Shown in pieces: positions 11,750 to 28,245 of a DNA stretch of 49,845 bases. The DNA is from Basidiobolus ranarum (lineage: Eukaryota). The stretch covers positions 1 through 49,845 of the forward strand of contig JASJQH010000018.1 in NCBI GenBank assembly GCA_040143965.1, read 5' to 3'. A program made the position numbers and the translations under genes. The notes beneath the pieces were generated by a model that searched no databases, was not told where the DNA came from, and saw only the letters and a list, made by a program, of their open reading frames with translations. Numbering within the stretch: the stretch's first letter is position 1; the number at the start of each line of letters is the position of its first letter.

Positions 11750-12666
11750 TAGCTCTATTCAAATAAGTAATTTGGATTAAATTTAATCAAAACATCAATT
11801 TTTGTTGTGTATATGCTAACAACTAATCATTATCAATATATGAAAAATCATTTCCAGATCGTAAACTATGTTGATTTACAAATCAAATAGTGTAAATTTG
11901 CACATAAATGATCTATATTACAGAAAAGGCAAAAGGAAGTATTGTTTGATGCATGACAACATATCAGTCAATCTCTGTTCAGCTTTGACAGATATAAAGG
12001 GTTAGGGCTCAATACGGAGTAAAACAATGCCGTTATTCACATTTTTGCCAGGAACATGGATGGGCGGATTGGTAAACAGATTGTTCACAATGAGGAGCGG
12101 GTGTGTAACATTGGTAATATGCTCAATAAAAATATGGAAGAAGGTCACGAATTTCCCCGACGACGGAACTGGGGGATTTTAATGAATGCTAAAGTAAATT
12201 TACCGTCGATGAAGGAAAAGCACGCGGGAATTGCTCCTAAGTTGGAAATTCTGAGATCCGAAAGTAATGTGATACCCGAATCATTACTAATAAGTAAGAA
12301 CTGGGTTAACGTTCAGCTCAAAGGCAGATAATTTGACCATGACATCACGCCAAGAAGAAATTCATATATATAGAAAGTTCTCTAATGTTGTTTCCATCAG
12401 ATTTCCCATTTGGTGTCTAGGCATAGGCAATCAGGTAATTATTCTTTTTATTTGACCCTGGTGTTCTTATAATCAAAACACCTTGCATGTCTAACCTATG
12501 TGACTTGACTGTTCAATTTCCTAGAAACTCTTTTGTGTTCCCTTTTCACTGTTGTTTTGAGCTCTGAATATTTACCTTACTAAACCAAGTGAGTGTTAAT
12601 ACCATCTTTTTCAGTTACCTGCTTCTCCACTTTTACCACCTTATCTTCTTTTTATTATTACACAAT

Positions 12667-15490
12667 ATGGAAGATCCTCTCATTTATTCTCCCCCACGAA
12701 CTCCATGTAAAGCCAATACTAAAGAAAACCATAGGTCGTTTTCCAGCTCTACACTAATACGGTCCTGTCCCACAAAGACCACAGAGCCCGTTACTTCCCC
12801 CCTCAATTCCACCCAACATACCAGTCAAGCACCAAACACTCTTACAAAGCATTCGCTCACACCTTCATCGTCGAATCTTGTACGTGCAAGGTCTGAAAGA
12901 AAGTTCATCCCTGTCGAGCAATACTCTCCCCTATCAGCGGTAACCCTTAGATCTATTAGCAGCCCAACTAGATTTGTTACGTGTATGTTCAATGCCGCAA
13001 CAAGCGCTGCATCTACTTTGACAACACCTACAGCAAACAAGCCAATAACTATTGAGACAACCCCACTTTCCTCAAGTATTGATACTGTAAAAGATCAAGA
13101 AGAACCACGACGAAATTCAACACCCCGTTTTCCACAAGTCCAAACACCAACAATGGCGACAGCAACTACAGATTTATCTACCGCTTCGGCAGTAACTGCT
13201 AGTCCTCCAGCACTCACTTTAGGACATTTAGAGCAATTTAGCAATGGTTTCCAGAATAATCAGACTGTCACTCCGCATAGATCTAGTACATATTCTCACA
13301 GTACTTCAGAACAGGTAGTTAAGAACTTAAGTAGATCTATGAGTGCGCGTATACCGAATCGTAATAGACGCAGAAGTGATACTACCGCCAGTATAGATGA
13401 TACATTCGACGCGGAAGGATCGAACTTAAATATCACTGCAAAAAAGAAAAATTCAGACTTCCATAATCTTTTCAAAGACGTTCCAATAAGTGAAATTCTC
13501 ATCCAAGGTATGCAGAAATGATTGAAAATCAGAATAGTGAACATCTCTTCTCCAACACTATTGCTTACGCTGCTTTCATAGATTACTCCTGTGCGATACA
13601 AAAGGATATTCTCATCCACGGACGAATGTATGTTACGGAGAATTACATTTGTTTCTACGCTAGTATATTTGGATTCGTATCCAGCGTAAGTTCTATTTTT
13701 CATTCATTTTGTCAATCTGGTAAAATAACACTACTCGACTGAATTAGATTGTTGTCGAATTTAAAGACGTTGTTGCCATTGAAAGAAGAAATATGGCTTT
13801 CTTTGTTCCCAATGCAATCCTCATATCCACACTTCAACAAAAGGTATGTCTGAATCTTCGTTTAAATTTAAGATTAATTTATTAAATATCCTATTGTAGT
13901 ATCTTTTTGCTTCTTTTATGACTAGAGAGGCAGCCTTTAATCGATTGGTTGAGTTCTGGAGAAAAAACCACCCTTCTTTGGTAGAAAATTTGGGATATTG
14001 TAATTCCGAAAGTAATCTCGAATCTCCATATAACGTCAGCAACCAGGTAGACTCTACAAGCGATTCTGAAGGTTCCAACTCTGATGCGTCTTCTGAAGCT
14101 AGTGATGAAACCCAAGAAGTGCAAGATGCAATAGAGCCTAGCAATATGAGGCATCCAGTGGTGAATAGAGGCGGAATATCCTCATTATCATATGTCACGT
14201 CTATTACGCCAACTCCAGTGAGTAAAAAGAGAACAATAAGCACCGGCTTCCAAATTCAAGGAGACACTCATAAGAAGCCAACACTTTGTGATTGTTACGA
14301 AACTGGCCATTTCAAAACACTTTTATTGGATACAGTTATTCCCGCACCTATCGAAAAGATCTTCGAGCTCCTTTATGGGGATAATGCTCAATGGATAGAA
14401 AACTTCTTAACTGAACACAAAAACAAAGGTATTCAGTTAGTTCCTTTCCTTTCATAGACAAATTATTAATGGTTCGTTTTAAAGATGTATCATCCACTCC
14501 TTGGGATGGTAACAAGAGAATGTTACACTATATAATGCCCATCAATGTACCCATCGGTATAGACATCTTCTCTTCTCTACAAACAAACAATCCTTTACTT
14601 ACAATCTAACTAGGTCCGAAGCACACAAAATGTACGATCACAGAAGAAATTGATCACAAGGACTTTGACAAGTATGTATGATAGCACAGAGAGTAGTTCC
14701 AAGTGTGATACTAATGCCTATATTCATATCAGATATACATCAGTCATTGCCACTATTTCTACTCCCGATGTCCCCAATGGAACCTATTTCAATCCTGCCA
14801 CTCGTACCTGCTTGATGCATGCTGGCAATGGAGAAACTCGTATGATTGTAACTTGTGCTATCACTTGGCATAAGTCCTCGTGGCTGAGAGGTATTTTCAT
14901 CTATAATAGGAATACACATAGAACAATACTAAACATTCATCCAAATATTAGGGCAAATTGAACGTAGTACGATGGACGGAAGTAAGATAGTAGCTAAGAA
15001 TACTGAGAATGCTATTAGACGAGAATTGGTTGATAATTCATCAAGTGTCACTTCGTCCGAGCCATTTGAAGAGAAGAAAGTTAAGAAAACTAAGAAACGA
15101 GTTCGCCAACAGGGTAAATCCGAGAAGCCTGAAGTCTCGCACACAGTGCTTAATGAAGCACGTACGACTTTAGGATCGTTACACAATATGGAGAAACTCA
15201 GTCCTTCCACCATGATTTTGTTACTTGTGCTGATCATATTATCAATCTCCAATATTGTCAGTTGGTATCATATTCATACCATCTCCCAACGGGTCCAATT
15301 CACCGAATCTCATATCAATGGCCCGGTAAATTTCAAGCCCGAATCCGAATCCGAACCCGAACCGAAGCAAATCGCACATACTATGAGTCAGTCAGATAAG
15401 CAGTTGATAGGAGATCAACTCCGAAGTGTCGAGGAACTACTTAGAAATATAGATCAGAAGATGATGAATGGGATAGAATCAACTCCCTAG
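12667..15490 (+). CDS. GRAM + VASt (StARkin) ER sterol-transfer protein, Lam/Ltc/GRAMD1 family, multi-exon
   Basis: S/T-rich N-terminus. GRAM domain (NSDFHNLFKDVP..DYSCAIQKDILIHGRMYVTENYICFYASIFGF). VASt motifs (TPDVPNGTYFN..TRTCL..WHKSSWLRGQIE). C-terminal TM helix (MILLLVLIILSISNIVSW) followed by a coiled coil. Confidence 0.88.
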
Positions 15491-26397: not shown

Positions 26398-28245
26398 ATG
26401 ACGTTAGAGATTGCCTCCTCAATCAACTCCAAAAATGAAACCGATTCTACAGCAAACTTGTCTAACTCGTTTTCCAGTAGCATTTCTTCTGATGTATCAC
26501 TTTCTACTCTAGCTTGTGTACAAGAACAGAAAGGTTTTGAGCATAGTGCTGTTCTATCTTCCGAAATCCCCTCCGACAAACTGACCCAAATCAAAAGCCA
26601 AGAAGGAGAAAAACAGTGTACTCCCCAAGTGACAGTACCGGATCCCCCAACCGAGAGCAAAGATAACTCACCTCCCCCGTCACCGTCACCCTCTCATTTA
26701 TCTTCACCCACCTCAGAAAAGCAGACTGTTTCAGATGTATCAGAGCACTCGGAACCCAAGGATCCTCCGACTGTTGTCGACGCAACTGTTGAAGACGATT
26801 TAGCCTCTGTTGCTACTCAGGAAGATGATCAAGGTCAGTATAGATATATATTCCAATACAAATCCCAAGTTATCAATTTCTTACTAAATGCCTATTTACT
26901 TCGCCACTAATCTATAGATACCAAAGACCAACATCACGAAGCTTTAGATTCGTTACGTGAGATTGAAGCCGAATTTGCCAAACTTCGAGACAGGTACGAA
27001 CTACATATTTTATGCCTCTAATGATGAAAACTATGGTTCTAATCAATCATGAAGAATTTATCGTGAGCGAATAGAAGAGCTGGAAAAGGAGATAGTAATG
27101 GTGGAAGAGGGTAAATATTACATTTCTGTATAATTGCACTAGTTACAGTCAATAGTTTAACTTGACTTTATATATAGATACCCATCCAGAGTTAATGCCA
27201 CTATTAGATGAGATCGAAAGTAAAAAAAGGTCGTTGGTCAACACAGCTAACGCATTCCGAAATGCGCAAATGTTTACCATTAATAATGTAAATTATGGAG
27301 CCGAATATCAAATTCATTGCGATTACGAGGTAAATAATTACGCATCAACCGTTCACAATCTTCATTCTCTCACAACGATAGCAATTTAGAACTCTAGGAA
27401 ATGCCTAAAAGCAAATCTTTCACAAGAGGTTACGAGCAAAAAGCAACGCCTTAAAAAAGAGTATGAAAAGCTAGACGAGGAATATTGTAAGCATCAGTCG
27501 AATACTATATCCACCATCCAAATGTGTTCTAATTGATCGAAATCTAGACGCCGGGTCAATCAGTCGGAAAACTCCCCGCATTTACGACACAAACCTCACA
27601 ACCGCCCGCTCGATGATACCAGAGTTGAATATCCTTTTTTTTCCTACTTACCATTTGCATATACGAACCTGATCAAATATCCTTAACCAAGCTGTATTAC
27701 ATATGGTATCTAGTTTAGATCAAACCGAGATCAACGAAGATCTAGCGCTTATACAGGTATGCTTTCTTATAGATTCCGCATCAAGCGGTCTTTTAGTATA
27801 TTCACTAACTCTTTTGTATCAACCAACGTAATAGCTTGCTACAGGTACACACATTCTCTTTCTATCATATCCAGCAACATACAGAGTGCCAAATATCTGA
27901 TACTTATATGTATAATAGCACAGGCCAAAGTAAGTCGCCTTCCTTTCGAAAATAGTGTCATTCGTGTCTACGCAGAGTCTGGGAAGCTGTCATATTATGG
28001 GCAATGGCTTAAAAAGGGAGACGCTATCATGGTAAATGATTTCAAGTCTGATAAATACAACGCCAAATTCCTCACTGCGAACAAAGAAACGGTAAACGAA
28101 CCTGTAGTCTGCTAGCCATAGCTCAAATAGCTGTATTAATCAGATGTTCCTGTAGATTACTGTGCAACGACCTGACGGATCAAAAGAGCAAATCTCACTG
28201 GACTTAACTAGACAGGGCAAGTACGAGTTGCAGCTCAAAGTATAA
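26398..28245 (+). CDS. Sds3-like family (Dep1/BRMS1L-like) Sin3-HDAC subunit, multi-exon, containing an AT-AC intron
   Basis: Spliced coiled coil EALDSLREIEAEFAKLRDRIYRERIEELEKE..THPE, LDQTEINEDL, and C-terminal ESGKLSYYGQW..RPDGSK..GKY. Stop at 28243-28245. Confidence 0.82.
27629..27700 (+). other. U12-type (minor spliceosome) AT-AC intron, 72 nt, phase 1
   Basis: 5' splice site ATATCCTTTT (27629-27638), branch site TCCTTAAC (27680-27687), 3' AC at 27699-27700. Removal joins GAG TTG A|AT ATG GTA TCT AGT TTA GAT in frame; retention gives an in-frame TGA. Confidence 0.9.

Follow-up and report, generated by a model that had tools for sequence, protein, structure and literature searches.

A genuine minor intron of the U12-type AT-AC class very likely interrupts a single gene of the Sds3/Dep1/BRMS1 family in the fungus Basidiobolus ranarum. 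Its 72 nucleotides (nt) occupy positions 27629-27700 on the forward strand of the window that we analysed, the whole stretch of 49,845 nt from contig JASJQH010000018.1 (assembly GCA_040143965.1, positions 1 to 49,845), and in the sequence-derived gene model the intron is the sixth of nine. A first-pass annotation, made from the letters of the window, had proposed this intron with its donor, a branch site 13 nt before the intron end and a terminal AC. Direct reading of the DNA found all of these coordinates and motifs to be correct.

Signals of the probable minor intron at 27629-27700

The elements of the intron, in window coordinates, are as follows.

27629-27700, + strand: probable U12-type AT-AC intron, 72 nt, phase 1, intron 6 of nine
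27629-27638, + strand: 5' splice site ATATCCTTTT, agreeing in full with the U12-type donor consensus (described in PMC3584512)
27680-27687, + strand: branch-point sequence TCCTTAAC, an exact match
27688-27700, + strand: branch-to-3'-end stretch CAAGCTGTATTAC, 13 nt, terminated by AC
27670-27672, + strand: in-frame TGA reached if the intron is retained; stop codon of the GenBank gene K7432_000922, in open reading frame (ORF) 27475-27672

Donors were defined as [A/G]TATCCTT beginning at the first intron base, and ATATCCTTTT starts in this way. The intron termini are matched, with AT at 27629-27630 and AC at 27699-27700. [quoted passage not shown] All of the U12-type sequence features given there are present at 27629-27700. 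The candidate branch adenosines at 27685 and 27686 lie 15 and 14 nt before the last intron base, at or slightly past the published optimum. The stretch from 27688 to 27700 contains seven pyrimidines among its 13 bases, with a longest run of two, and is without a distinct polypyrimidine tract. Minor introns are reported to be biased away from phase 0 (PMC10639083, as available to us), and phase 1 agrees with this.

With 27628 joined to 27701, the reading frame is preserved in phase 1, exon 6 contributing the first base of an Asn codon and exon 7 the other two. The resulting model of 10 exons is open over 408 codons with zero internal stops. Both reading-frame arguments of the first-pass annotation, that splicing restores the frame and that retention runs into the TGA at 27670-27672, were thus upheld. 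Its assignment of the intron to the U12-type AT-AC class agrees with the sequence features above, and the orthologue and homologue alignments described below favour the AT-AC junction over a GT-AG junction.

In the established mechanism of minor splicing, the donor pairs with U11 and U6atac, and the branch site with U12. Applied to this locus, U11 and later U6atac would pair with the ATATCCTTT 5' splice site, and U12 would pair with TCCTTAAC, leaving one of the two adenosines there bulged out to act as branch point. The AC located 14-15 nt downstream of the branch adenosine would serve as the 3' splice site, with no need for a polypyrimidine tract, and excision would join codon 300 (A|AT) in phase 1.

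To canonical AT-AC U12-type introns (PMC3584512, as available to us) the B. ranarum intron is alike in its 5' splice site, branch sequence, branch-to-3' distance, absence of a pyrimidine tract and AT-AC pairing. It differs in being very short, its 72 nt resembling the neighbouring U2-type introns (60-84 nt), and in the overlap of its branch motif by a second donor octamer. This second copy, ATATCCTT at 27677-27684, forms with the branch motif the combined string ATATCCTTAAC (27677-27687). The overlap is probably a coincidence of the common TCCTT core, because no branch site or 3' end follows downstream of the second copy.

Neither motif was enriched in the window on its own. RTATCCTT matched 6 times against 4.32 expected (at least 6 in 22 of 100 shuffles), and TCCTTAAC matched 3 times against 1.83 expected (at least 3 in 28 of 100 shuffles). 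We also counted an ordered triple, consisting of ATATCCTT, TCCTTAAC 30-500 nt later, and AC 8-18 nt beyond. The triple had a single occurrence in the window, at 27629-27700. First-order Markov simulations of the window, with both strands counted, produced it in 14 of 1000 runs, a figure that demands neither the correct frame nor placement in a conserved gene.

Gene model and choice of junction

The gene model was built from the coordinates below.

26398-28245, + strand: complete Sds3-family gene of 10 exons and 9 introns, with 408 codons and a TAA stop
26398-26833, 26918-26993, 27055-27110, 27178-27329, 27390-27486, + strand: exons 1-5
27548-27628, 27701-27756, 27835-27844, 27919-28091, 28156-28245, + strand: exons 6-10
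27548-27628, + strand: exon 6, upstream of the minor intron; its last base is the first of the AAT (Asn) codon
27701-27756, + strand: exon 7, encoding the conserved segment after the junction; contains ATG 27703, the start of K7432_000923
27835-27844, + strand: micro-exon of 10 nt, flanked by GT-AG introns 27757-27834 and 27845-27918
27919-28091 and 28156-28245, + strand: exons 9 and 10, separated by intron 28092-28155; conserved C-terminal domain
27624-27713, + strand: rival GT-AG intron, 90 nt, in frame, donor GTTGAA; judged unlikely

The eight introns other than 27629-27700 are all GT-AG and 60-84 nt long, with A at donor position +3 in seven and C in one. GenBank records two genes at the locus, K7432_000922 (P0001, 313 amino acids (aa)) and K7432_000923 (P0166, 108 aa). 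A 50-residue exon translation matched the former, a hypothetical protein of B. ranarum, at 100% identity. A search with a downstream exon matched K7432_000923 and also the B. meristosporus protein K493DRAFT_311424. The last 13 residues of K7432_000922 are translated intron, terminating at the TGA, and the first codon of K7432_000923 is the ATG at 27703, three bases past the intron-terminal AC. Residues 1-300 of K7432_000922 followed by the complete K7432_000923 reproduce the 408-residue model exactly. On this sequence correspondence, the two entries are very probably one gene and the split in GenBank an annotation error. A gene predictor blind to AT-AC introns would have read into the intron and split the gene in two.

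To evaluate the junction, we compared the model with P0167 (K493DRAFT_311424), the Sds3-like protein of Basidiobolus meristosporus, which is one chain of 408 aa. With the AT-AC junction, the alignment contained 296 identities and 2 gap columns, neither of them at the junction. K7432_000923 aligned with residues 301-408 of P0167 without gaps, at 98 of 108 identical positions, and the residues encoded by the micro-exon were found in both proteins. P0167 has Leu at the position of the K7432_000923 start Met, so this Met is not a conserved start.

More distant proteins were examined in an alignment of 27 homologues drawn from the 150 best representatives. In BLASTP, the model reached the C-termini of homologues (e.g. 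model residues 137-408 to residues 305-597 of 597 in P0043, and 147-407 to 448-766 of 767 in P0016). As the homologues align to their own C-termini, the gene continues past the TGA. A protein search with the C-terminal half of P0167 matched only P0167 itself. Around the site, 37 in-frame and stop-free GT-AG, GC-AG or AT-AC pairs are available, and consensus motifs occur only in 27629-27700.

The strongest alternative, itself quite improbable, is excision of a GT-AG intron, 27624-27713, by the major spliceosome, with the U12-like motifs inside it there by coincidence. Such an intron would have GT and AG termini and keep the frame, yielding a 402-residue product without an internal stop, and CTTAAC at 27682-27687, 26 nt ahead of the AG, could act as its U2-type branch site. 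One homologue, P0058, is gapped at the junction, as this product would be. However, the donor GTTGAA has T at +3, which is found in none of the eight GT donors of the gene, and splicing here would delete six residues that are present in P0167. The alignment of this form with P0167 accordingly fell to 293 identities with 8 gap columns, six of them the deletion at the junction, against 2 gap columns for the AT-AC form. All six deleted columns are filled in 24 of the 27 homologues, five are filled in a further 2, and two are filled in P0058. Against a hidden Markov model (HMM) built from the 27 homologues, the GT-AG form scored 226.0 bits, 12 bits lower than the 238.0 bits of the AT-AC form. The GT-AG reading would also require a perfect U12 donor, branch site and AC to fall in frame by chance, where the 14 in 1000 simulated occurrences were counted before any demand on frame.

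A slightly slimmer chance attaches to the GenBank annotation being right, with K7432_000922 running to the TGA and K7432_000923 beginning at ATG 27703 as separate genes without splicing. Both models stand in GenBank and the ATG is indeed present, but only 30 nt separate the stop from it. The orthologue is a single 408-aa protein with Leu at the Met position, and the fungal homologues are continuous across the junction. The intron-derived tail of K7432_000922 is absent from P0167, which carries the downstream-encoded residues in its place.

Just as improbable is that 27629-27700 is a U2-type AT-AC intron excised by the major spliceosome: introns outside the U12 class can also have AT-AC termini, a divergent AT-AC subclass requiring the major small nuclear RNAs (snRNAs; PMC3584512) and 85 major AT-AC or related introns being reported in human (PMC8280824, both sources as available to us), but the donor and branch site here have the full U12 consensus, the branch-to-3' distance is short, there is no pyrimidine tract, and the congener has hundreds of minor introns together with minor snRNA genes.

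Several observations weigh against the U12-type intron at 27629-27700. The intron is known from comparison of DNA and protein and not from transcripts. B. meristosporus was compared as protein only, and its orthologue may have no intron at this site. An AT-AC candidate without motifs, 27653-27700, scored 243.3 bits against the HMM, above 27629-27700. This higher score arises because extra residues are kept, and the HMM alone is therefore not decisive. The alignment gap of P0058, from Racocetra persica, falls exactly at the minor-intron junction. None of 29 metagenomic Sds3 loci, described below, has a U12 intron at this site. Finally, an Rfam search of the B. ranarum contig, at the gathering score and at E values up to 1, found no U11, U12, U4atac or U6atac; its only output was two weak matches to bacterial families.

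As a separate observation on P0058, which is a glomeromycete gene model, its junction gap might stem from a minor intron that was wrongly given a GT-AG pair in the model. Other models end near the same place. P0004 (Cunninghamella), P0006 (Sporodiniella), P0022 (Rhizopus), P0008 and a B. meristosporus paralogue (P0003) all stop just past the conserved acidic-Asp-Leu segment. The B. ranarum gene has its intron and micro-exon at this position, and the shared endings suggest that these models are truncated systematically.

The annotation error has consequences beyond the junction. As annotated, K7432_000922 is truncated and without its putative capped Tudor domain, since the split parts the coiled-coil region from that domain. 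The error at the Sds3 locus implies that further AT-AC introns of B. ranarum have probably been modelled wrongly too, leaving split or truncated genes. Many gene models could be affected if B. ranarum is like B. meristosporus, with approximately 240-250 minor introns of both subtypes. The practical value of the intron is that it exposes and corrects a gene split in a public annotation.

Minor splicing in Basidiobolus and the introns of animal relatives

Published surveys already place the genus among those rich in minor introns. Larue and Roy (2023; PMC10639083) counted 249 minor introns in B. meristosporus, which make up 0.554% of its introns, the highest fungal density, and Olthof et al. (2024; PMC11347168) counted 237. 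The latter source lists B. meristosporus among basal fungi with several minor snRNA genes, names U11, U12 and U6atac in species of mucoromycotes and zoopagomycotes, and describes a putative, divergent U4atac from B. meristosporus (all as given in the available portions of both papers). A working minor spliceosome in B. ranarum, which the first-pass annotation had supposed, would follow by analogy with this congener.

The B. ranarum intron is thus a further example of a known intron class, in a genus already published as minor-intron-rich. It shares genus and intron class with the minor introns of B. meristosporus, whose K493DRAFT_311424 is collinear with the B. ranarum protein at 408 aa. It differs in belonging to another species, for which GenBank has the gene split and the intron unrecognised. 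The fungal genus richest in minor introns gains one well-supported example, and the known distribution of the minor spliceosome is unchanged.

Minor introns also occur in animal members of the family. Intron 7 of human SUDS3 is U12-type (PMC8280824; PMC11039992), and BRMS1L is treated as a minor-intron gene (PMC3728624). The use of SUDS3 intron 7 as a CENATAC-sensitive example suggests that it is A-type. In PMC13173789, the intron positions of BRMS1 are described as conserved from sponges to human and SDS3 and BRMS1 as ancient paralogues; its available portions make no mention of minor introns and leave the orthology between fungal and animal paralogues unresolved. Our literature searches returned, within the accessible parts of these sources, no statement of the position, phase or subtype of the human intron, nor any fungal U12 list naming the Sds3 family. 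The first-pass annotation had proposed that vertebrate BRMS1, BRMS1L and SUDS3 carry an AT-AC intron just before the homologous protein segment. Of this, a U12-type intron in human SUDS3 and the status of BRMS1L as a minor-intron gene are borne out (same sources), while the AT-AC subtype and the homologous codon were not shown in them. The likeness to human SUDS3 intron 7 and to BRMS1L consequently holds at the level of the protein family, with its Sds3-like and, putatively, capped Tudor domains, and of the intron class, the human position, phase and subtype not being stated in these sources as available.

We lean slightly towards the view that the B. ranarum intron and the minor introns of SUDS3 (intron 7) and BRMS1L are the same ancestral AT-AC intron, which would predate the split between fungi and animals and lie at one codon of the segment immediately upstream of the putative capped Tudor domain. 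Basidiobolus is assumed to have some ten thousand genes or more. Shared descent is favoured because, at approximately 250 minor introns per genome spread over that assumed number, independent acquisition of a minor intron in the same small family is unlikely. If shared descent is true, the intron would act as a conserved point of control, slow to be spliced, over a core subunit of the Sin3-HDAC (histone deacetylase) complex. At this locus, the question whether fungi and animals have a minor intron of a Sin3-HDAC subunit in common can be put to a simple test.

The homologous site was also examined in metagenomic sequence. A scan with the smaller alignment A2, used since A1 was too diverse, yielded 29 Sds3 loci. 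None of the 29 carried a U12 donor paired with a branch motif in the protein-matched region, and the one pairing found, in L002, lies outside it. Both flanking protein patterns were found in 14 of the loci, and in all 14 the DNA was continuous, with no intron at the homologous site; in the other 15, no pair of flanking patterns was found. Two AT-rich loci, read by translation, were also continuous. These loci probably represent lineages without minor introns, and hence the 29 neither support nor contradict an ancient origin.

Two further features of the metagenomic loci were recorded. On L002, a contig of 26% G+C, positions 102-160 contain ATATCCTTTT and, 36 nt later, TTCTTAAT, approximately 1.4 kb upstream of the Sds3-like match; this is possibly a minor-type intron in another eukaryote. 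In many of the fungal loci L008, L011-L014, L017, L020-L022, L025, L028 and L029, the frame ends right after the conserved Asp-Leu-x-x-Met/Leu, often with a codon that starts with GT. The B. ranarum gene has its GT-AG intron at 27757 in this position, so the place of this major intron may be widely conserved and that of the minor one not.

Other motif sites and protein family

Elsewhere in the window, candidate sites were examined and set aside. For the other five ATATCCTT sites, either no usable branch motif with a 3' end was present in coding surroundings or the site itself lay in or antisense to coding sequence. On the minus strand, 13301-13609 presents an AT-AC-like pair, ATATCCTTTT followed 309 nt on by TTCTTAAC and AC. 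We judged it to be chance because two coding ORFs on the plus strand, 12568-13521 and 13494-13742, run antisense to it. Scans of the window with relaxed donor and branch criteria revealed no further credible minor intron.

The first-pass annotation had named the host a fungal Sds3-family gene, and profile searches bear this out. K7432_000922 matched the Pfam family Sds3 (PF08598) with 69.2 bits against a gathering cut-off of 25.4 (E = 6.8e-19), over profile positions 1-117 of 217, and P0167 matched with 64.5 bits. Pfam searches with individual exon translations gave nothing meaningful, the exons being too short. In PDB searches, the Basidiobolus single sequences matched Dep1 only, and K7432_000923 alone gave no match to 7sxi.

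A family profile (A3), composed of 20 family members with P0167 as the first row, was also searched against the PDB. It matched Dep1 (8i03_E, E = 5.3e-29; 8ga8_G, E = 1.4e-21), Schizosaccharomyces pombe Sds3 (8i03_G, E = 1.2e-10) and the Sds3 coiled coil (4zqa_A, E = 3e-6). Its C-terminal positions matched the capped Tudor domain of mouse Sds3 (7sxi_A, E = 3.7e-5). The likeness to yeast Dep1 and Sds3 of the Rpd3L/Sin3 complex (PDB 8i03, 8ga8, 9v2v) and to mouse 7sxi thus holds at the level of the family profile, whereas the Basidiobolus protein alone matches Dep1 only; placement in the family is by profile, with no single paralogue assigned.

A capped Tudor domain at the C-terminus is described in both Sds3 and BRMS1L (PMC8800102, as available to us). 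The corresponding C-terminal domain of the B. ranarum model (27919-28245) had no Pfam match and matched 7sxi only as part of the A3 profile. Between the two Basidiobolus species this domain is 91% identical, compared with approximately 72% for the whole protein.

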